From Candidatus Yanofskybacteria bacterium (GTDB lineage Bacteria > Patescibacteriota > Minisyncoccia > 2-02-FULL-40-12 > GWA2-44-9): DNA of 51,076 nucleotides. How positions within the stretch are numbered: the first letter of the stretch is position 1; each line of letters starts with the position of its first letter. The translations under genes and the position numbers were made by a program. Of this stretch, positions 23,044 through 43,408 are shown one piece after another. The stretch spans positions 208,087 to 259,162 of the forward strand of contig DOSG01000008.1 of the NCBI GenBank assembly GCA_003514055.1. Direction: 5' to 3'. The notes below the pieces were generated by a model, which made no database searches, had not been told where the DNA came from, and worked only from the letters and a program-made list of their open reading frames with translations.

Positions 23044-24207
23044 TTAAATTAGAGATTTTATATTATCGGCATAATTTTTGATGGCCACGGTCTTATCAAA
23101 TCTCGATAAGTCGGTTTCAACTTTGATATCTTTCGCTTCTTTGAAGGCTTTTATAGCTTGGTCTGATGACCAGTCGATAATCCGCCCGTTATTAGAATTC
23201 AAAACGTCCGGGACTATCCCTACTAGCGTAGCTATGACCGGAATACCGCAAGCTAGGGCTTCTAAGATAACTCTGGGGCCGCCTTCATTGTAGGATAACA
23301 TTATTAGCGCGCGAGATTCATTTATAAGTTTGGCAACCTCGGCGGAATCTTTGGCCCAACCATAAAGAATGACACGGTCATTCAATTTTGAATTTTGAAT
23401 TTCTAATTTTAAATAATTATGAAGGGCGCCGTTGCCGACGATTAAGATCTTGAGATTGGATTTTTTGGCTATCTCTAGTAATATGTCTAATCCCTTGTTT
23501 TTCTCTAGGCGTCCAACAAAAATTAGATCGTACTTTTTCTCTAAATTCATGAGCTTAAAAATGTCTAAGTCAATATAAAAAGCTGGAATATATTTGATCT
23601 TACTCTCCGATACTCCTGCCTTTTTCAAGAAACCGGGCACTTCGTTTTTATTGATTACTCTAATCGCTTTAGCCTTGGAAGAATCGATAGATATAAAAAT
23701 TCTGGTCAAAAATTTATAAAAGAATTCTCTAAGATCAGAAGTCCTAGGGTAACCAGGTATGTGCATTATTTCAAGAACATATGGAACTTTGATCTTATTC
23801 CAGAGCATTCTTGCTCCGAGGCCATTATAGAATGGCGGATACTCGTGGACGGTCATGACCCAATTTTGATTTTCTAATTCCCAATGGCGGTCTTTGCCGC
23901 CTAAAAGACCGCCATTAGCGCTTAAAATTTTTAGACCTTCAAAATAAATCCAGAATGGCTGGAGGATTTTGGGCCAGGGTGAGGGATGAATGAAAACGTT
24001 GCCGAAGAATTTATTCTCATAACGAAGGGCGCCTTTTCCGGCAGCTGCCGGAGCCAAAAGACCGCGATCATTCCGGACTCTTGGGCAGATGATGTCGATA
24101 CGATCCCAGTGTTTATGGAATTCCTCAAGAGTATTATAAAAAGCGCCGCGCTTCCCTTCGGCCAATGCAGACGCACCAACACCGGAAATCATTAGTAAGC
24201 GAGCCAA
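23044..24207 (-). CDS. GT4 glycosyltransferase containing two in-frame palindromic insertions
   Basis: FVGRLEKNKG, EGGPRVILEALACGIPV; foreign-looking segments DRGLLAPAAAGKGALR and NGGLLGGKDRH. Confidence 0.88.
   Translation of the reverse strand: MARLLMISGVGASALAEGKRGAFYNTLEEFHKHWDRIDIICPRVRNDRGLLAPAAAGKGALRYENKFFGNVFIHPSPWPKILQPFWIYFEGLKILSANGGLLGGKDRHWELENQNWVMTVHEYPPFYNGLGARMLWNKIKVPYVLEIMHIPGYPRTSDLREFFYKFLTRIFISIDSSKAKAIRVINKNEVPGFLKKAGVSESKIKYIPAFYIDLDIFKLMNLEKKYDLIFVGRLEKNKGLDILLEIAKKSNLKILIVGNGALHNYLKLEIQNSKLNDRVILYGWAKDSAEVAKLINESRALIMLSYNEGGPRVILEALACGIPVIATLVGIVPDVLNSNNGRIIDWSSDQAIKAFKEAKDIKVETDLSRFDKTVAIKNYADNIKSLI
23883..23916. repeat. Palindromic element copy A (in CDS)
   Basis: AATGGCGGTCTTT-GCCGCCTA-AAAGACCGCCATT; 34 bp (23886-23919) identical to intergenic 43378-43411. 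Confidence 0.9.
24022..24065. repeat. Palindromic element copy F (in CDS; hybrid arms, nested inner palindrome)
   Basis: ACGAAGGGCGCCTTT + TCCGGCAGCTGCCGGA (perfect 16-bp palindrome, 24037-24052) + GCCAAAAGACCGC. Confidence 0.8.
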
Positions 24208-26273: not shown

Positions 26274-27491
26274 TTAATTTGGAATGAAGTTATAGATTTC
26301 TTGGAACTTTTCAGAAATTGATTGCCAGCTATATTTATTTTTAGCCAATTCTCTGCCGTTCTCAATCAGCCTTCTCCTTAAATCAACGTCAGACAGAACC
26401 ATTTTTATCTTCTTTGCCAAGTCTTCGTGATCGCCGACCCCACAAAAAAGACCAGTGACTCCATCTTCCAGAAAATCTACGATTCCACCGACACGAGTAC
26501 CGATTATTGGCACACCCACAGCCATAGCCTCCAAAAATGCATTACCTAGCCCTTCCGAATAAGATGGCCTGGCAAATACATCGGCCATACTTAAATAACC
26601 CGGTAGATCTTCGTAGTAGATATCCCCGGCGAAGATGATTCTATCAGACACGCCCAACTCTACGGTTAGACTCTCTAGCTCGTCAGCCATTGGCCCAGAT
26701 CCGATGATCACCAACCGAGTCTTTAAATTTCCGATAACCTCATCTAGCCGAGCAAAGGCCTTTATTAAAACATCGACGCCGTTCTTAGGTACCAATCGCG
26801 ATACAGTCATGACTATTCTTTCATCTTCGCGAATATTTAATCTCGACTTCATCTCTGACCCCTCAAAATCTAGTTTCTTGAATAAGTCCGAGTCGACTCC
26901 GTTGGGTATCACGATTATAGTTGCTTTCTTATTTAATTTTCGAGCAAATTCGGCCAGATAGTTGCTAATGGCCGTTATCTTATCGGACTTTTTGATGACT
27001 AGGCCTCTCATCATCTTAAGAAGCGCGCCTTGGCTATCCAACTCTTTCCCTTCTTGAAGTGTTGTGATTAACGAAACGTTGGGATCGAAGATCTTAACCA
27101 GGTAAGCGGCGATCGCGCCGTAGGAAGCTTGATATGCGTGGAGACGGCTATAGACACCGTAGCAATGGCGGTCTTTTCCGGCAGTTGCCGGAGCGAAAAG
27201 ACCGCCATTGCCGGCGAGGCTGCGGGCTTTGAAAAAGCCGAGTATCGGGAGGAGATATTTATCGAATTTAAATCCCAGCCCCAGCCTATGGACTTTAATA
27301 TTGCCTACTTGTTCGGTCTTCTTGTTGGCTCTCGAGAAACGGGCTGTAATTAAATCAAAGCTAATCTCAGGAAGCCTTCGGCAGATTTCTTCCATGGCTA
27401 TTTCTGAGCCTCCGATCATTGGCCTAAAAGCCGTGGAAAATAGTAAAATTCTCTTTGATTCTGGTTCCATTTTATGATACCATCGTCTCAT
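26274..27491 (-). CDS. GT4 glycosyltransferase with one in-frame palindromic insertion
   Basis: IGGSEIA, IPNGVD, TVSRLVPKNG, EGLGNAFLEAMAVGVP; insertion NGGLFAPATAGKDRH. Start may be ATG 27470 (MEPES). Confidence 0.92.
   Translation of the reverse strand: MRRWYHKMEPESKRILLFSTAFRPMIGGSEIAMEEICRRLPEISFDLITARFSRANKKTEQVGNIKVHRLGLGFKFDKYLLPILGFFKARSLAGNGGLFAPATAGKDRHCYGVYSRLHAYQASYGAIAAYLVKIFDPNVSLITTLQEGKELDSQGALLKMMRGLVIKKSDKITAISNYLAEFARKLNKKATIIVIPNGVDSDLFKKLDFEGSEMKSRLNIREDERIVMTVSRLVPKNGVDVLIKAFARLDEVIGNLKTRLVIIGSGPMADELESLTVELGVSDRIIFAGDIYYEDLPGYLSMADVFARPSYSEGLGNAFLEAMAVGVPIIGTRVGGIVDFLEDGVTGLFCGVGDHEDLAKKIKMVLSDVDLRRRLIENGRELAKNKYSWQSISEKFQEIYNFIPN
27162..27211. repeat. Palindromic element copy E (in CDS; nested inner palindrome)
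   Basis: GCAATGGCGGTCTTTT ... AAAAGACCGCCATTGC (16-bp arms) around TCCGGCAGTTGCCGGA. Confidence 0.9.
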
Positions 27492-28740: not shown

Positions 28741-30246
28741 ATGGATAAAGCTATAGGAAAATTAGCGCTAGTCTGTCTTTTTGTTTTGATCGGATCGCTG
28801 ATGATCCACGGCCTTTATTCTATAAACCAAGATATCGGGCGACACATTAAAATCGGCCAAGTCATATGGGAAACAAAATCTGTCCCCGACACAAATCTTT
28901 TTTCCTTTACCGTCCCGAATCACCCGTTTGTTAATCACCACTGGCTCAGCGAACTGTTCTTCTATGCTTTGAGCAGTATCGTCAGTCTCAAGTGGTTCAT
29001 CATTTTTAAGGCCATTCTTAATTTATCAGCATTCTTGATAGTCTACACGGCCGTGAGAAAAAGATCTTCCGTAAGCGCGATATTGCTACCGTTCTTCCTT
29101 GCGGCCATGGTCTTCGTAGAAAGAACTGACGTTCGTCCAGAAATCTTTAGCTATCTATATCTGGCACTGTTCCTATACATATTAATTAAGGCTAAATATG
29201 AGGCTAGATATCAATGGCTCTATGCTCTACCATTCATACAAGTCCTTTGGACAAATTATCATATCTATTTCGTTCTCGGTCCAATTATGACTCTATTCTT
29301 CTTAATTGATCGTTACGCCCATGACAGAGAGAATCGTCAGATACTAAAAACCTCGGCTATCGTCTTCGGCCTGACTTGCCTAGCGACGCTAATCAATCCG
29401 AGCTTTGTTACCGGAGCTCTTGAGCCGCTTAACATAATGCGCGACTATGGCTACAGTATCGTCGAGAATCAGTCTATATTTTTTCTTACCGATTACGGCA
29501 TATCAAAATTCACTATATCCGTATTCGAACTATCGATAATCGCTTTAGCTATAAGCTTTTTCGTAGCACTCAAAAATGGGGCCAGAAAAATTACATTTGA
29601 AGCTCTTACAGCAATAACCTTCGCAATTCTTGGCATCTACATGATAAGGAACTTTGGTCCTTATTCACTTGTCCTGGCAACTATCGGATCACTAAACTTC
29701 GGATACGTTAAGTCGGAAATCAAGGAACGTGGACTGACGATATTGTACACGTTAGCCACTATCATCATCTTGCTAGTAACACTTCAGGTTATCAATGGGA
29801 ATTTCTACGCCTTCACCGCTAGTGGCAAGAAGTTTAATCTTGAAGTTCCGACTGGCGCCGATAATGCAGTTAATTTTATAAAACAAAATAATATTAGGGG
29901 GCCGGTTTTTAATAACTTCGACATAGGCAGTTTCATGATATGGAAGATGTGGCCGGATGAGAAAGTATTTGTTGATGGCAGGCCCGAAGCCTACGGCGTA
30001 GACTTCTTCGAAAAAATATATAAACCCATGCAGGAGAGTCCCGAAACCTGGGCCAGACTATCAGAAGAATATAAAATAAACTACATTCTATTCGCTCATA
30101 CCGACATAACGCCCTGGGCCCAGACATTTCTAAACTATATCATCACCGATAAAAAATGGGCTATGGTATATATAGATAATAACTCGGTTATATTCTTAAA
30201 AGATACCATCGACAACAAGGCCTTGATTAGTAAATTCCGTAAATAA
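28741..30246 (+). CDS. Polytopic membrane protein, probable GT-C-fold (lipid-linked sugar) glycosyltransferase
   Basis: About 11 TM helices; DIGRHIKIG...FS.T.P.HPFVNHHWLSE first loop, DVRPE, C-terminal FNNFDIGSFMIW and VFVDGRPE; function inferred. Confidence 0.6.
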   Translation: MDKAIGKLALVCLFVLIGSLMIHGLYSINQDIGRHIKIGQVIWETKSVPDTNLFSFTVPNHPFVNHHWLSELFFYALSSIVSLKWFIIFKAILNLSAFLIVYTAVRKRSSVSAILLPFFLAAMVFVERTDVRPEIFSYLYLALFLYILIKAKYEARYQWLYALPFIQVLWTNYHIYFVLGPIMTLFFLIDRYAHDRENRQILKTSAIVFGLTCLATLINPSFVTGALEPLNIMRDYGYSIVENQSIFFLTDYGISKFTISVFELSIIALAISFFVALKNGARKITFEALTAITFAILGIYMIRNFGPYSLVLATIGSLNFGYVKSEIKERGLTILYTLATIIILLVTLQVINGNFYAFTASGKKFNLEVPTGADNAVNFIKQNNIRGPVFNNFDIGSFMIWKMWPDEKVFVDGRPEAYGVDFFEKIYKPMQESPETWARLSEEYKINYILFAHTDITPWAQTFLNYIITDKKWAMVYIDNNSVIFLKDTIDNKALISKFRK

Positions 30247-30289: not shown

Positions 30290-31660
30290 CTAGAAATCTC
30301 CGGTGGCACCACCGCCACCAGAGGAACCGCCGGCGAATCCACTAAATGAAGAATCGCTGCCTCCGCTATCATGACTACCACCACCGTAATACGAACTATC
30401 CAAGTGTGTCGAATGATCCGACCTATAAATAGTGCCACTATCCGACGAATATCTCGGCGGATTGAGAAGATTATCGGCGATAACAAGTAGGGCATAGATG
30501 GATACCCAATTAGGGTTAACCGTCTTAGACTGATTTTCAGCATCACTTAATTTACCTTCTGCTTGGGCAATTTGTCTATCATCGACAATAGCTTTTCCTC
30601 GAACAGTTCCAACTTTCTTCGGAACAGACTCGAGAAGTTCTTTCGATTTCCTCTCGGCTTCCTTTCTTTCACGAATTTTTGATTCAATACTACTAATCAC
30701 TGCATCGGGAGAAATTCGAGCAAGACCACGGAGAACATCTCCGAGAGCATACAATCGTCTCTCCAAAGCACTCAAATTATCTTCTTGAGCAATTGCAAGG
30801 GCGTTGAGATTGCTTTCAATATCAGAAACTATTTGTGGAAGAGCGGCCAATTTGTCATTTGCTGCCCTATATTCGTCTAGCGGAATTTCTTCGGCCAGTT
30901 GTTCCAGTCTTGCCATCGCCGGAAGATATTTTACACGGATAGTTGCTATACCTTCTCGGCCAACATCCATACTATTCTTGATTAAATCTTTGAGCTCATT
31001 GCGACGGCGCCTTCGATATAGAAATACTACGGGCGGACCGAATAAAACTGTCAGGGCGAGCACCACAAGGAATATATATTTAAACGCTACCGCGAACTCG
31101 GCATTTACACGAGCCCGTTCCTCTTCTTGCCTTCTCTTCTCTTCGGCTCGTGCTTCAGCCCGTGCTTGAAATGGTTTTGAGCCCAAATGGTCAATAATCC
31201 CATTGACCGTAGCTTCTGTGCCTGCTGGCCAATTATTAGCCTTAAAGTTCGGAATTGCGTATTGCCGAATTATATTACCCGACGTAATGTCAGTAAGATC
31301 CGGCTCAAGCCCATATCCGACTTCAATGCGAACCTTGCGTTCAGCCGGTGCTAAGAGCATCAAGACACCATTGTCTTTGCCTTTTTCACCGATACCCCAC
31401 TGAGCAAAGAGTTTACTTGCGTAATCCTCTATTGGCATATCGCCAAGCGAAGATACGGTCACCACGGCCAGCTCGATGCCCGTAATATCACGATAAGATC
31501 GTAATCTAGATTCCAAATTCTTAGCCTGATCAACAGTCAAAACATGAGCAAAATCATTCACAAAACCAACTGGCCTGGGAAAAACTTGGCCCAGAGCAGC
31601 ATTGGTCATCAACAGAATAGATATTAACACTAGGCCGATTCGAGCTTGTTGTCTCATCAT
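30290..31660 (-). CDS. TPM (YgcG-like) domain membrane protein with coiled-coil region and Gly/Ser tail
   Basis: GFVNDFAHVL, ELAVVTV, WGIGEKGKDNGVLML, VRIEVGYGLE; GGSSGGGGATGDF terminus; AGGAG SD 7 nt before the ATG. Confidence 0.9.
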   Translation of the reverse strand: MMRQQARIGLVLISILLMTNAALGQVFPRPVGFVNDFAHVLTVDQAKNLESRLRSYRDITGIELAVVTVSSLGDMPIEDYASKLFAQWGIGEKGKDNGVLMLLAPAERKVRIEVGYGLEPDLTDITSGNIIRQYAIPNFKANNWPAGTEATVNGIIDHLGSKPFQARAEARAEEKRRQEEERARVNAEFAVAFKYIFLVVLALTVLFGPPVVFLYRRRRRNELKDLIKNSMDVGREGIATIRVKYLPAMARLEQLAEEIPLDEYRAANDKLAALPQIVSDIESNLNALAIAQEDNLSALERRLYALGDVLRGLARISPDAVISSIESKIRERKEAERKSKELLESVPKKVGTVRGKAIVDDRQIAQAEGKLSDAENQSKTVNPNWVSIYALLVIADNLLNPPRYSSDSGTIYRSDHSTHLDSSYYGGGSHDSGGSDSSFSGFAGGSSGGGGATGDF

Positions 31661-31711: not shown

Positions 31712-31739
31712 ATTATACAACTAATTCATTAAAAATCAA
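31712..31739 (-). promoter_or_regulatory. Sigma70-type promoter of the TPM gene
   Basis: TTGATT (31739-31734), 16 nt, TATAAT (31717-31712). Confidence 0.55.
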
Positions 31740-31774
31740 GGTTCGCTATGTTGGCTTCAAGAAACCACGCACCC

Positions 31775-31883
31775 TTCGATCATAGAGACATTGCTCCCTT
31801 GGGCCAAAACATTCTTAAACTACATTGTTACTGATAAGAAATGAGCCATGATATATGTCGATGATGACTCGGTTATATTCTTA
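31775..31883 (+). pseudogene. Degenerate second copy of the 3' end of 28741..30246
   Basis: FDHRDIAP[+1 nt]WAKTFLNYIVTDKK*AMIYVDDDSVIFL versus FAHTDITPWAQTFLNYIITDKKWAMVYIDNNSVIFL (30091-30198); 85 of 108 nt identical by hand. Confidence 0.85.
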
Positions 31884-32426
31884 TTTCCCGATGGCGGCCT
31901 TCGAAACCAAGAAGGCCGCCATCATAATAAGCACCGACAGAGCGATCAGAAACCTGCCAAGACCGAGTGCGAATATGCTACCAATAATTGTAGCCGATTC
32001 TCTTTCGGGCTCGTAACTAATTAAATTATCAGGCGACCCGACGTCGGCTGAAGGCATCGACAATATCTTGCTGTCATAATGGCTTCTGCCAGAGACACTA
32101 ACGAGATTGCCATTAAGCGATTCCGGAACTGGAGAGCTAGTCAAACTTGGAGTTGGCGTGGGGCTAGAAATAAAAAAATTACCTACCGAACCAAGTTTCT
32201 CTGAATAGATCTTCGCCTTCGGAGTAGGACTGATCAAGCCAGAGACAGCGCCAACTGGACCAATTTGGTTAATCGAGCTAGTCGCCTCTTCGACAACGCC
32301 GCTAAGCGTATGGCCCAAATCGCTAGATAGTCTACCGGTAATCTCAGATGCCTCTGCAGACGAGAAAAACCAAAGACCTGCAACCAGTAAAATCGGGCTT
32401 AGTAGCCTATATGCTTTGAAAGCCAT
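31881..32426 (-). CDS. Hypothetical surface protein with signal peptide, Ser/Pro/Thr linker and C-terminal TM anchor
   Basis: The track ORF starts at 32480, inside the upstream gene; ATG 32426 (MAFKAYRLLSPILL...AEA) is the plausible start. Its last codons are a palindromic element. Confidence 0.7.
   Translation of the reverse strand: MAFKAYRLLSPILLVAGLWFFSSAEASEITGRLSSDLGHTLSGVVEEATSSINQIGPVGAVSGLISPTPKAKIYSEKLGSVGNFFISSPTPTPSLTSSPVPESLNGNLVSVSGRSHYDSKILSMPSADVGSPDNLISYEPERESATIIGSIFALGLGRFLIALSVLIMMAAFLVSKAAIGK
31890..31923. repeat. Palindromic element copy H (diverged, compensatory changes)
   Basis: GATGGCGGCCTTC-GAAACCAA-GAAGGCCGCCATC, preceded by TTCCC as in copies A and C. Confidence 0.8.
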
Positions 32427-33531
32427 AATTTGTGTAGTATGGCCCACCGATAGAGCCAGGCGGTATCCTAACCTCGACAACGACTTGCACTTGTCGACCA
32501 GCAGTCACGGCATCTAAATCGCTACTAAGCTTCATTGGATTTGAATAAGTGCCAGAATTGTTTACGATAATCGACCTATTGGGAACATCAGCATTAGATG
32601 ATTGGACCGAATATATCCTCACATTATTAGCAGTAGCTATTATATTAGATCCGCTAGACCAATCATCAAATTTCAAAGACAGATCCTCTTGATTCATCGG
32701 AACCGTGATATCGAAAGCCCATTTCCAGCCATGATCGAAGTTCCCATCGGCTATCGCCGAACTCCTGAGTATAGTTATATTAGTTACCGATATATCACTG
32801 ACATCGCCTGGCTCGCTCGTTGACGTGGGAGATGGACTTGGCGATGAGACCGGAGAAGGTGTTGCCGTAGGCGATGAACTTGGTTCAGGCGTTGGAGAAT
32901 ACGATGAGCTTGGAGTCGGCGATGAAGATGGAGTAGACTCTAAGCCGTCGAACCCAACTGACAAAGATATGAGATCATGGCTTGTATGGGTCTCAGCTGA
33001 AGGATTTCTGAAAGCAAGAAACCTTATCTTTAAATTATTAATCTTGGAAACACTATTTACGATATCCGTCAGATCAAAGTTATCGATGACATCATTATTC
33101 AGGGCCCCTTCCGTTGTTAGTAATAATTGATGAGAGAAATCTACGCCATCCCAGATTTCTAGCTTAGCTCCAGCCAGAGCCCCAGACCTTCTATACTTAT
33201 GGGATATAGATACGGAATTTATAGTTGAGTCTCCCGCAATGTTGGGAGAAAAGATAAATTCTAGATATTTACTTTCGTCGTAGGTGCCATCGTTGGGCCA
33301 AGGTTCGTTACTCTGGATACGAGTATTATCGTTAGCGCTTAATTTAGATATATCGATAGCACTAAAACTAGCCGAAACGTCGGAGCTATCATCAAAACCG
33401 TTGCTGATTGTATAGTTCTGATTAGTACTCGCACTAATATCAGACGATGTAGTAAGCCAGCCAAAACCCCATATAGAGACGCTCACTATAAGAATCGCGG
33501 CAGAAAAAGATTTTTTCAGCTCATCGTTCAT
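32407..33531 (-). CDS. Hypothetical secreted/surface protein; two beta-rich domains joined by a Ser/Pro/Thr linker
   Basis: N-terminal hydrophobic segment, STPSSSPTPSSSYSPTPEPSSSPT linker. Confidence 0.75.
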   Translation of the reverse strand: MNDELKKSFSAAILIVSVSIWGFGWLTTSSDISASTNQNYTISNGFDDSSDVSASFSAIDISKLSANDNTRIQSNEPWPNDGTYDESKYLEFIFSPNIAGDSTINSVSISHKYRRSGALAGAKLEIWDGVDFSHQLLLTTEGALNNDVIDNFDLTDIVNSVSKINNLKIRFLAFRNPSAETHTSHDLISLSVGFDGLESTPSSSPTPSSSYSPTPEPSSSPTATPSPVSSPSPSPTSTSEPGDVSDISVTNITILRSSAIADGNFDHGWKWAFDITVPMNQEDLSLKFDDWSSGSNIIATANNVRIYSVQSSNADVPNRSIIVNNSGTYSNPMKLSSDLDAVTAGRQVQVVVEVRIPPGSIGGPYYTNYGFQSI

Positions 33532-33563: not shown

Positions 33564-35534
33564 CTACTTGAGCCCATCAAGAAGCTTAGCAAAAGCCTGA
33601 GCAAGCTCGGCGTCTAGTCCAGGCAAAGACATCCCATCTTTTATATTTTTCAACGCTTCGTCACGATCATCCATCGCTCTATACGTCACGGCCAAGTTAT
33701 AATAAGTTGTCGGATCCGATGGCTTTATTCTCTTAACCTCTTCTAGCATTTTTATAGCTTCCTCGGGCTGATTGTTTTTCGCATATATTGAGGCTAAATT
33801 CTGGTAGGCAAACGGGAAGTTATTATCCTTCTCGATAGCAAGCCTATAATATTCCGTCGCTTTCTCGGTATCCCCTCTGTCTCGATAGATGTTTCCGAGA
33901 TTGTAGTATGGCTGAGGATATATATTATTTTTGTCAGCGATAATCTGCTCATATATTCTGGCCGCATCGTCTAGGCGACCCTTATCTGAGTATATATTAC
34001 CTAGATTATTCAATATTCTGATGCTTCCGGGATTATATCTAATTATCTCTTCATAAAACGCTATGGGATTACCCCAGATTAGGTTTCTCCTTATCGATTG
34101 GACGGCGAAAAATAACAGATAACCAATGACAACCAGCCAAAATAGCCAAGTCATCACCGCACAAAGGCGCCCTTTGTATCCGCCAGGGGCGGATAGGCGC
34201 CGACCGCCTTCGCAAGATTGTAAGATGCCCCACAGCTTGTCCAAGTAGAAGGCCAATAACGCGAAGAATCCGATCAATGGCAGGTATAGCCAATGCTCAT
34301 AGATGATGGCATTAATCGGAATTATGCCTGAAACCATACTTAAAGACACAAAGAACCAGGACCAACCGAAGAACCAAATCCTAAAGTTAGAAATTTCCCA
34401 ATGGCGGTCTTTGAAGCCTAAAAGACCGCCATTGCCAGCCGAGGCGATCTCCGACCCCCGAGCTTGGAACTTTCGCATTTCTTTTCTGCTTATATGCCGG
34501 TCTTTGCCTGCCTGCGCAGACGGGCCGCCTAAAAGACCGCCGTCTAAATATTTAGGGCTTAGTGCTTCCTTTCTGTATAAAATGACCCCGATAGCCACGA
34601 TCGCCATTATTGCTAGAAATCCGAGCCAGACTGGCCATTGGAAAAATGAAGTATGTACCGAAAAATCCCTTTCCATGTGCAAACCCGTAGGAACAAATAT
34701 AAGCCTTATATACTCGAGAAATACATGGAAGAAAGTATATATTCTATAAATTAGATTATCGGCATAAACATTCGAAGCATTGTAGAAGTTGAGGGTATTC
34801 TGAAAATTGAGGACGGTAAGTCTCAGGATTCCATAGACTCCGGAAATTGCGAAAAATGGAATCGCCTTAACGATCCCCTGCCACAAAGACTTAAAGAACT
34901 TGTCTCGAGAAAGGAAGGATACGTAGAAGACTACCAGAAGTACTGGCAGTAATATGGCCGTCTCTCGGCTTAGAACGGCTAGAATCATAGATGCGAGACC
35001 TAACGTCCGATACAAGACCTTTTTGGAGCTATCCACATTGATTCTAATGAAAGCCGCAAGAGCCAGAAGCATAAAGAAGACGGACATTGGATCTCCACGG
35101 CCAGATATGTATGACACGGCTTCAACTTGGAGTGGACTCAGCAGAAAAAGCATAGACGCAAAGAAAGAGATAGTCTTCTTCCGAAATACGTACAGAAGGA
35201 TCAGGAATGCAAGTATGGCATTAAAAACGTGGAAGGCATTACTGAGTAAATGATATCCGAAAGGATCGGTGCCAGAGATCGCATAGTTAAAGGCGAAAGT
35301 TAAGAGAAGAAAGGGACGATAATAGTTACTATTTAGGCCGAAACCAGACAATACGTCTTTAGTAAATATTTCCTTGAGATGAGAGAAATCATGAACATAA
35401 TTATTGCCCACTATCCAGTCATCATCGTCCCAGAATAGCCCGTTGTTAAGATTAAAGGCATAGACCCCCGCGCCCAACAACACGATGAGGGCAATCAGCC
35501 CAATATTCTTTTTTATTGTATCAGTAAAAGACAT
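33564..35534 (-). CDS. TMTC-like membrane protein (GT-C-like N-terminus, C-terminal TPRs); candidate protein O-glycosyltransferase, with three palindromic insertions
   Basis: FWDDDDWIVGN, YYRPF, PFGYHLLS, EAVSYISGRGD, SRETAI, YEHWLYLP; TPRs (NNLGNIY, YYNLGNIY, AYQNLASIY). Confidence 0.82.
   Translation of the reverse strand: MSFTDTIKKNIGLIALIVLLGAGVYAFNLNNGLFWDDDDWIVGNNYVHDFSHLKEIFTKDVLSGFGLNSNYYRPFLLLTFAFNYAISGTDPFGYHLLSNAFHVFNAILAFLILLYVFRKKTISFFASMLFLLSPLQVEAVSYISGRGDPMSVFFMLLALAAFIRINVDSSKKVLYRTLGLASMILAVLSRETAILLPVLLVVFYVSFLSRDKFFKSLWQGIVKAIPFFAISGVYGILRLTVLNFQNTLNFYNASNVYADNLIYRIYTFFHVFLEYIRLIFVPTGLHMERDFSVHTSFFQWPVWLGFLAIMAIVAIGVILYRKEALSPKYLDGGLLGGPSAQAGKDRHISRKEMRKFQARGSEIASAGNGGLLGFKDRHWEISNFRIWFFGWSWFFVSLSMVSGIIPINAIIYEHWLYLPLIGFFALLAFYLDKLWGILQSCEGGRRLSAPGGYKGRLCAVMTWLFWLVVIGYLLFFAVQSIRRNLIWGNPIAFYEEIIRYNPGSIRILNNLGNIYSDKGRLDDAARIYEQIIADKNNIYPQPYYNLGNIYRDRGDTEKATEYYRLAIEKDNNFPFAYQNLASIYAKNNQPEEAIKMLEEVKRIKPSDPTTYYNLAVTYRAMDDRDEALKNIKDGMSLPGLDAELAQAFAKLLDGLK
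34161..34208. repeat. Compound palindromic element copy G (in CDS)
   Basis: ACAAAGG-CGC-CCTTTGT, then TATCCGCC-AGG-GGCGGATA, then GGCGCCGACCGCC; encodes GGRRLSAPGGYKGRLC. Confidence 0.7.
34400..34433. repeat. Palindromic element copy C (in CDS)
   Basis: AATGGCGGTCTTT-GAAGCCTA-AAAGACCGCCATT; encodes NGGLLGFKDRH. Confidence 0.9.
34494..34543. repeat. Palindromic element copy D (in CDS; nested near-palindrome)
   Basis: ATGCCGGTCTTTG + CCTGCCTGCGCAGACGGG + CCGCCTAAAAGACCGCCGT; encodes DGGLLGGPSAQAGKDRH. Confidence 0.85.
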
Positions 35535-42638: not shown

Positions 42639-42686
42639 TAAATACGAAGGGCGCCTTTGAGGCCAAAAAGGCGCCCTTCGTATTTA
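42639..42686 (-). terminator. 20-bp-stem hairpin downstream of the wHTH gene (palindromic element family)
   Basis: TAAATACGAAGGGCGCCTTT-GAGGCCAA-AAAGGCGCCCTTCGTATTTA; a lone right arm AAAGACCGCCATT follows at 42699-42711. Confidence 0.7.
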
Positions 42687-42718
42687 TTTCGCTGACTGAA
42701 AGACCGCCATTGATATTA

Positions 42719-43374: not shown

Positions 43375-43408
43375 AACGGCGGTCTTTGCCGCCTAAAAGA
43401 CCGCCATT
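43375..43408. repeat. Palindromic element copy B (intergenic)
   Basis: AACGGCGGTCTTT-GCCGCCTA-AAAGACCGCCATT; the single arm change is a G-U pair on the minus strand. Confidence 0.9.

Follow-up and report, generated by a model that had tools for sequence, protein, structure and literature searches.

REP/RAYT systems, in which repetitive extragenic palindromes (REPs) accompany a REP-associated tyrosine transposase (RAYT), are known mainly from Proteobacteria and are extragenic by definition. The palindromes and their enzyme (RAYT or TnpA-REP; together, a 'REPtron') have been described in E. coli and Pseudomonas (PMC3479197, PMC3116915, PMC3337134, PMC5581495), and their defining arrangement is a single-copy Y1 gene that is bracketed by the repeated palindrome of the genome (PMC3116915, PMC3337134, PMC3479197). 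Here we describe a family of palindromes in the genome of a Candidatus Yanofskybacteria bacterium (GCA_003514055.1; 711 kb, 10 contigs), a groundwater member of the Candidate Phyla Radiation (CPR)/Patescibacteria, and in particular the hairpin at positions 31890-31923 of a 51,076-nucleotide stretch of contig DOSG01000008.1 ('the window', C10:208087-259162 in our contig numbering; positions without a contig name are those of the window). This hairpin probably belongs to a family of REP-like palindromes that is associated with a tyrosine transposase of the RAYT type (Y1/HUH, IS200 superfamily), encoded by a single-copy gene. No description of a REP/RAYT system in CPR/Patescibacteria was found in the literature that we searched.

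The family has the core REP/RAYT features and is a variant of such a system that is tolerated in coding sequence. As in REP/RAYT systems, short (34-48 nt), GC-rich palindromes are repeated genome-wide; a single-copy Y1/HUH transposase-like gene is bracketed by cognate palindromes; each genome has its own version of the palindrome, yet the link to the gene is retained; most copies are intergenic near 3' ends; and the hairpin is kept by compensatory changes, which Bertels and Rainey found to be common across the hairpins formed by REP doublets (REPINs) (PMC3116915). Unlike those systems, the family has ~37 loci rather than hundreds, its host is a 0.7-Mb CPR genome, and about a third of its copies lie inside reading frames and are translated, so the family is not extragenic in the classical sense.

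The TnpA-Y1 enzymes of the IS200/IS605 insertion sequences (IS608, ISDra2) belong to the same enzyme superfamily (PMC6006769); they recognize subterminal hairpins in single-stranded DNA (ssDNA) together with a short neighboring sequence (PMC6006769). By analogy, this mode of recognition is the likely reason for a hairpin that has a conserved flank, GGGAAAT, on one side only. In contrast to these insertion sequences, the repeats described here do not contain a transposase gene, the enzyme is encoded only once in the genome, and no left-end/right-end pair is evident.

A further point of comparison is provided by the Rickettsia palindromic elements (RPEs), which were reportedly described by Ogata et al. 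in Science in 2000. As in the genome studied here, RPEs are in-frame palindromic repeats that are tolerated in protein-coding genes, including housekeeping genes, of a reduced genome, where they extend proteins by peptide segments at surface positions that tolerate them and can change the ends of genes. However, RPEs are ~100-150 bp long, occur in Rickettsiales and form unrelated sequence families, whereas the elements here are 34-50 nt long and their host is a CPR bacterium; also, to our knowledge the in-frame palindromic elements of Rickettsia have no known enzyme or associated transposase, whereas a candidate enzyme is present here. Passages of PMC1779305 and PMC10969869 refer to RPEs. One small genome here combines a RAYT-like gene and its cognate palindromes with copies that are translated in essential genes and at a C-terminus.

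The hairpin at 31890-31923 and its family

The arms of the hairpin, GATGGCGGCCTTC (31890-31902) and GAAGGCCGCCATC (31911-31923), are 13 nt each and 100% complementary; they enclose an 8-nt loop, GAAACCAA, that reads TTGGTTTC on the minus strand. We orient copies by their loop, that is, the loop-defined strand is the one that reads T-W-G-G-C-N-N-C, and the minus-strand loop fits this orientation. As ssDNA the hairpin folds at -16.9 kcal/mol (z = -7.2 against 200 shuffles); for the RNA of the minus strand, the folding energy is -32.2 kcal/mol and z is -5.2. No further match to the hairpin within three mismatches was found in the window, and none was found in 100 shuffles. The shuffle test (0/100) and the fold z-scores exclude an unrelated chance hairpin.

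The copy at 23883-23916 (copy A), AATGGCGGTCTTT-GCCGCCTA-AAAGACCGCCATT, differs from the 31890 copy at arm positions 1, 9 and 13, where its A-T, T-A and T-A are G-C, C-G and C-G in the 31890 copy, with both arms altered each time. These three compensated pairs, as well as the retained stem length of 13, loop length of 8 and TTCCC flank, had been reported in a preliminary description made from the letters of the window, and we find all of them; the 5' flank reads TTTCCC at the 31890 copy, ATTCCC at 23883 and TTTCCC at 34400. The closest copies, at C3:86593 and C7:159480 (GATGGCGGTCTTT-TTGGCTTC-AAAGACCGCCATC), differ from the 31890 copy by two compensated changes and one loop change. Taken alone, the 31890-31923 copy is an ordinary family member.

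A census of the whole assembly identified ~32 related hairpins. A covariance model (R1) was trained on twenty copies with 8-nt loops, with loci counted at E<=0.01; in its own genome R1 gives 72 both-strand matches that represent 37 loci, and in 40 relatives (genomes of the same family or order) it gives 0-9 matches each, also counted on both strands. The expansion of the family is specific to this lineage, that is, to one genome. Rfam at gathering thresholds has no family match in the window.

The flank on one side of the hairpin is also part of the family. Directly 3' of the hairpin, at a fixed position, GGGAAAT is found in four of 20 oriented copies and GGGAATT in a fifth; this is the 'TTCCC flank' of the preliminary description. 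The five copies carry quite different stems, and the 7-mer GGGAAAT has a genome-wide frequency of 5.6e-5 per position, so its recurrence as a flank is far beyond chance.

Covariation of the arms

The initial census demanded pairing, so the copies were re-ascertained by the loop and the inner 4 bp alone. With this strategy, 20 sites have at least 8 of the 9 outer positions paired and 8 unrelated sites have at most 5 of 9, with none in between. The 20 family sites carry 12 different outer arms, and 174 of their 180 outer cells are Watson-Crick; the paired columns require at least 11 compensated state switches. Across the full stem alignment of 20 copies, 98.5% of cells are standard pairs and 8 of the 13 pairs are altered on both sides; none of 500 column shuffles reaches the observed values, and in a register control, in which the 3' partner is slid by 1-3 columns, pairing is 30-62%. 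Arm substitutions are compensated far beyond chance, and pairing, rather than sequence, is conserved across the copies.

The exceptions are informative about how the copies arose. Six outer cells carry uncompensated mismatches, all of them transitions, and non-Watson-Crick pairs are almost absent from the stem (6 of 260 cells, four of them C.A on the loop-defined strand). The copy at C10:125605 has C.A at arm position 9, that is, an uncompensated intermediate at the position where the 31890 copy has C-G and copy A has T-A. Also, an identical C.A mismatch (GGCCGCC / GGCAGCC) is found at three loci, C10:14431, C10:191110 and C8:29223; because the same mismatch recurs, it was copied and not repaired, which shows that whole hairpins are copied along with their mismatch. 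The preliminary description had proposed that the hairpin is 'selected or actively corrected'. Maintenance of the structure is supported by the 20 copies; active correction is not, since the six mismatches persist and one of them is shared by three copies.

This shared mismatch bears on a mechanical explanation of the covariation, in which a mutation in one arm is transferred to the other, either through template switching within the strand (quasipalindrome correction) or when a hairpin intermediate is repaired, with no selection for pairing. Such templated correction would account for the strictly Watson-Crick pairing and for the near absence of decayed copies (the bimodal distribution described above). 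However, a mismatch that is carried by three copies was propagated and not corrected, which argues against efficient arm-to-arm correction, and we regard this explanation as quite unlikely. A possible footprint of such an event is located outside the window in mnmA, 10 nt from a family copy, where C10:98574-98605 forms a perfect hairpin with a 12-bp stem and an 8-nt loop that does not belong to the family (GTTCTTATCTTT-GCCCTGAT-AAAGATAAGAAC). One of its arms is formed by the conserved KDKN codons; the other replaces native residues without a change of length and encodes GSYL where relatives have NGKL or GKQL. From its sequence it looks like an inverted copy that was written over native sequence by template switching, but it could also be the product of chance, with about one 12-bp hairpin estimated genome-wide over the loop range scanned.

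The nearly invariant stem positions (ATGG...CCAT and CTT...AAG) might instead suggest a palindrome that is bound by a sequence-specific, dimeric protein, e.g., an operator or a signal of the DNA-uptake type. A binding site would conserve sequence, yet 8 of 13 stem positions change on both arms; also, the conserved 8-nt loop is not symmetric, so that the element has a polarity. A palindrome of this kind, like the chance hairpin, is highly improbable, and a DNA-uptake sequence in particular was rejected because arm sequence varies while pairing is kept.

The RAYT-like transposase gene

The need for a hairpin would be explained by a gene that the preliminary description had missed: a RAYT-type gene in this genome is bracketed by palindromes of the family. 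The Pfam family PF01797 (Y1_Tnp) has a single match above cut-off in the genome, at C1:21745-22044 (37.2 bits; cut-off 23), within a 211-aa open reading frame (ORF) that contains the HUH motif NHFHLL as well as YIHQNP; the Y1 transposase-like gene is present in one copy. The only NCBIfam match of the ORF is NF047646, REP_Tyr_transpos (REP-associated tyrosine transposase; E 2.3e-14), and the protein has no sequence match in the PDB.

On its two sides the gene has ACAAAGGGCGCCTTTGTACAAAGGCGCCCTTTGT and a near-identical copy, located ~47 nt and 14 nt from the gene ends, and both are recognized by R1. Among the relatives, the orthologue in genome G027 (61% identical) has ACAATGGGCATCTTTGCA...TGCAAAGATGCCCATTGT on both sides, and the orthologues in G013 and G017 have their own palindromes on both sides; the arms of the flanking palindromes differ between genomes yet stay complementary. 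The family copy in mnmA combines the 15-bp arms of the transposase-flanking palindromes with the 8-nt family loop and so links the types with 4-nt and 8-nt loops.

We propose that the enzyme would recognize the element as a folded hairpin in ssDNA, in the manner of TnpA-REP of E. coli and TnpA of IS608. Copying would then continue only for lineages with arms that pair: variants with compensated arms would be the 'masters' that spread, and mismatched copies would be dead ends. Copying of paired elements only would produce many different, internally complementary arms and few decayed copies. In the window, a copy would have arrived at, or mediated a rearrangement at, the junction of converging gene ends (vide infra); this event would have removed the last ~48 nt of a gene fragment and provided the facing ORF with a new tail and a stop codon that straddles the boundary between element and fragment. 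A secondary effect of intergenic copies on the host, as hairpins at mRNA 3' ends, is possible but not needed. If the link between the RAYT and the palindromes is causal, the compensated variants are a ready-made mutagenesis series for hairpin selection by a Y1 enzyme, and the system provides a way to ask how reduced genomes tolerate or use selfish DNA inside proteins.

Several observations weigh against this explanation. Mobility, cleavage and binding by the transposase-like protein are putative activities assigned from sequence, and the NF047646 score, 53.5 bits, is below the 80-bit cut-off. In classical REPs, one end of the palindrome carries a conserved tag, GTAG or CGTC (PMC3733652); in the aligned copies the foot of the stem shows ACAA/TTGT or GGGAAAT instead. 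In the palindromes that flank the transposase gene, the loop is 4 nt long and the arms are of the GGGCGCC type, whereas the 31890 copy has an 8-nt loop and GGCGGCC arms, and their membership in one family is based on the model score and on bridging copies. No flanking palindrome was found for the close orthologues in G029 and G036. REPIN doublets with a fixed spacing were not noticed on reading the copy coordinates, for which no spacing analysis was run; the few neighboring pairs (C1:1353/1431, C10:191110/191299 and 34400/34493 in the window) are spaced differently, and the majority of copies stand alone. A search for a relative at the genus level or for a polymorphic assembly, which might provide an empty site, gave none, and neither an empty site nor a polymorphism was seen (the JGI assembly 3300025095 is identical over the 301 nt aligned around the element). 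Finally, the location of about two thirds of the copies outside genes near gene ends is predicted by a host function too.

Placement in genes and intergenic regions

On a rough, ORF-based gene map (coding density ~0.9), ~21 of the 32 copies are intergenic, many of them 1-40 nt past a stop codon, and ~10 of 32 are in frame inside long ORFs that they do not break. With ~31% of copies in genes as compared to ~90% coding sequence, intragenic copies are rarer than expected for random insertion; however, copies are far more often intragenic than the classical 'extragenic' REPs. The intragenic hosts include mnmA, priA, a family 2 glycosyltransferase (GT2), two family 4 glycosyltransferases (GT4s), a membrane protein with TPR repeats (three copies) and the 181-aa ORF at the hairpin. 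Two reading frames are used, NGGL..KDRH and MA(A/V)F..K(T/A)AI, and the orientation of the copies relative to the neighboring gene is mixed.

The intergenic majority would be expected if the family consisted of RNA hairpins that function in the host as terminators or as stabilizers of mRNA 3' ends, with the arms kept paired by host selection for the RNA fold; in that case the 31890 copy would terminate the 181-aa gene, whose reading frame extends over it. Its RNA fold is very stable and it is located between a gene end and the next promoter. Also, the GGGCGCC-type copies share with the many bidirectional terminators of this genome an A-tract, a GC stem and TTTGT, that is, the layout of intrinsic (rho-independent) bidirectional terminators that are located just past stop codons. 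However, the 31890 hairpin is inside a reading frame and is followed by GGGAAAUAAG, with no U-tract; the minus strand continues GGGAAAUAAGAAUAUAA and the plus strand AUAAUAAGC, and the terminator scan does not list it, so we rejected the terminator assignment for this copy. The AATGG-type copies also have no U-tract, and the scan called none of them terminator-like here. The ~10 copies inside genes such as mnmA and priA, where termination would be harmful, the mixed orientations and the confinement of the expansion to one genome also argue against a host RNA; so do the very few non-Watson-Crick cells, of which four of six are C.A, in contrast to the tolerance of G.U that is expected of selection at the RNA level. 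We therefore consider a host RNA function unlikely as the explanation of the family.

Two housekeeping proteins illustrate the in-frame copies. In MnmA, TKGAFGAKKAPFV occupies a variable loop and makes the protein 15 residues longer there than in its closest relatives; the element is opposite an 11-residue gap in the comparison with E. coli MnmA. PriA carries TMAAFSVEKTAIV, 5-8 residues more than its relatives. The element in priA (C10:20345-22288; locus L005 346-2289) adds only these 5-8 residues though it encodes 13, and the residues of its 3' arm, KTAIV, align with the native (K/P)T(A/E)(I/L)(V/L)HS of the relatives; because of this alignment, either the insertion replaced ~6 native codons or the peptide mimics a native strand.

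The mnmA genes of four relatives (G008, G011, G026 and G027; loci L033, L035, L040 and L041) have their own, different insertions at the same loop of MnmA, and the G027 protein has a further insertion near its N-terminus, GWFLPAGPPAGRTGR; in-frame insertion at loops that tolerate it may be a general feature of the order.

The palindromes can be translated in two frames and in both orientations. Starting from this premise, we tentatively suggest a wider role, although we think it rather doubtful: in ultra-small CPR genomes a REP/RAYT system might act as a remodeller of coding sequence, with extra loops tolerated in the essential enzymes MnmA and PriA, new C-terminal tails and stop codons provided to surface proteins by insertion or recombination at gene ends (the 181-aa ORF would be an example), and perfect Watson-Crick pairing restored in a single-stranded hairpin intermediate, which would amount to genuine active correction. 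If true, this would be the first time that an enzyme is assigned to in-frame palindromes of the RPE kind. Hairpins such as these also account for unusual insertions and C-termini in CPR proteins, which is relevant to annotation.

The C-terminus of the 181-aa ORF and the adjoining gene fragment

As proposed in the preliminary description, the hairpin encodes the C-terminus of the ORF at 31881..32426. The minus strand ends ATT ATG ATG GCG GCC TTC TTG GTT TCG AAG GCC GCC ATC GGG AAA TAA, that is, ...IMMAAFLVSKAAIGK*, in which the terminal 13 codons and the stop begin at the second ATG; the final T of the GGGAAAT flank is the first base of the TAA stop. The same 181-aa gene is called in the independent JGI assembly (3300025095). 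The frame (MAAF...) is different from the NGGL...KDRH of the copies at 23883, 27164 and 34400 and is shared with the priA copy.

The 181-aa ORF has an N-terminal signal-like segment, an S/T/P-rich body and a C-terminal hydrophobic segment; we read it as a small membrane-protein gene, for which a longer start is an option (31881..32480). Neither the ORF nor its upstream neighbor has a Pfam family. No homologues were found in the 40 relatives, save one weak partial match, and a search of 5.8 billion proteins returned only the protein itself. The element lies beyond what appears to be an entire hydrophobic segment, so the tail of 13 residues was probably added recently.

On its other side the element adjoins a pseudogene fragment that duplicates, in degenerate form, the 3' coding part of the 501-aa gene at 28741..30246. 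Positions 31759-31883 are identical to 30075-30198 at 94 of 125 positions (75%; tblastx E 6e-12), with an in-frame stop (TGG>TGA) and a 1-nt indel. The gene remnant of the preliminary description is therefore a real pseudogene fragment, although the start given for it, 31775, is 16 nt inside the true one. The match ends at 31883, exactly where the flank of the element begins, and the missing last 48 nt of the fragment were not found on the far side of the element; their absence there favors a rearrangement at the element over a simple insertion at this junction. The earlier suggestion that the element marks a recombination breakpoint is thus plausible. A resemblance of the hairpin to the continuation of the intact paralogue was dismissed as chance (net score ~+2, gone in a wider alignment). 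The gene at 30290..31660 belongs to the Pfam family TPM_phosphatase, and the promoter-like site assigned to it (Table 1) places the element between the end of one gene and the promoter of the next.

Features of the window and further observations

The features of the window are collected in Table 1.

Table 1. Copies of the palindromic family, and features adjoining the 31890 copy, in the window.
Feature	Position	Strand	Description
Element copy studied	31890..31923	-	13-bp perfect stem, 8-nt loop; R1 54.3 bits, E 9.5e-13
Conserved one-sided flank	31883..31889	-	GGGAAAT (plus strand ATTTCCC); adjoins hairpin foot
181-aa ORF	31881..32426	-	Last 13 codons, MAAFLVSKAAIGK, in hairpin and flank
Pseudogene fragment	31759..31883	+	Degenerate copy of 3' coding part of 28741..30246, cut off at the element
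Intact counterpart of fragment	30075..30198	+	Inside 501-aa gene 28741..30246
Promoter-like site	31712..31739	-	TTGATT-16-TATAAT; for TPM-domain gene 30290..31660
Copy A	23883..23916	-	In frame in GT4 glycosyltransferase 23044..24207, ANGGLLGGKDRHW
Long-loop variant	24024..24069	.	Nested CCGGCAGCTGCCGG palindrome in loop; in frame in the same GT4 gene, 23044..24207
Long-loop variant	27164..27209	.	In frame in GT4 gene 26274..27491, GNGGLFAPATAGKDRHC
Diverged copy	34163..34211	.	In frame in membrane/TPR protein 33564..35534
Copy	34400..34433	-	In frame in 33564..35534, GNGGLLGFKDRHW; GGGAAAT flank
Long-loop copy	34493..34544	.	In frame in 33564..35534
GGGCGCC-type copy	42646..42679	-	Stem extends 42639-42686; intergenic, 39 nt past gene end
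Copy	43375..43408	-	Intergenic; one T.G mismatch

The window is a hotspot of the family, with 9 of the ~37 copies of the genome between 23883 and 43408, that is, in 20 kb of glycosyltransferase and cell-envelope genes. A half copy, GAAAGACCGCCATTG, is located at ~42691-42705.

The GC skew of contig C10 is reversed at about 30 kb, as is the gene strand bias, so this site is likely a replication origin or terminus. The loop-defined strand is on the inferred leading strand for 8 of the 11 orientable C10 copies; by a rough estimate this proportion is not significant as a bias for lagging-strand targeting.

A cassette-like array at C3:63586-65332 (locus L007 3586-5332) contains four small, unrelated genes on one strand, of 155, 175, 161 and 140 aa, which by the look of their translations are phosphoribosyltransferase-, GrpB-type-, nucleotidyltransferase- and winged-helix-like, respectively. 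Three of the genes are each followed by a family hairpin within 1-7 nt, and a fourth hairpin is located 32 nt upstream of the first gene. This arrangement prompted a comparison with integron attC sites, which was rejected: the elements (34-47 nt) are too short, and no R''/L'' boxes or extrahelical bases were seen, although no integrase search was made.

Two observations concern the architecture of the elements. In the long-loop variants at 24024-24069, 27164-27209 and 34493-34544, the loop itself contains a further perfect palindrome, TCCGGCAGCTGCCGGA; either this palindrome was inserted into the loop, or the long form is ancestral and the 8-nt loops are what remains after its collapse. Also, another repeat, GTATTCGGTAGGATTAAGCCCTCGGGCCTGCG..., directly adjoins three family copies (C10:191144-191190, C8:29257-29300 and C1:1386-1430), so some copies belong to a larger composite repeat.

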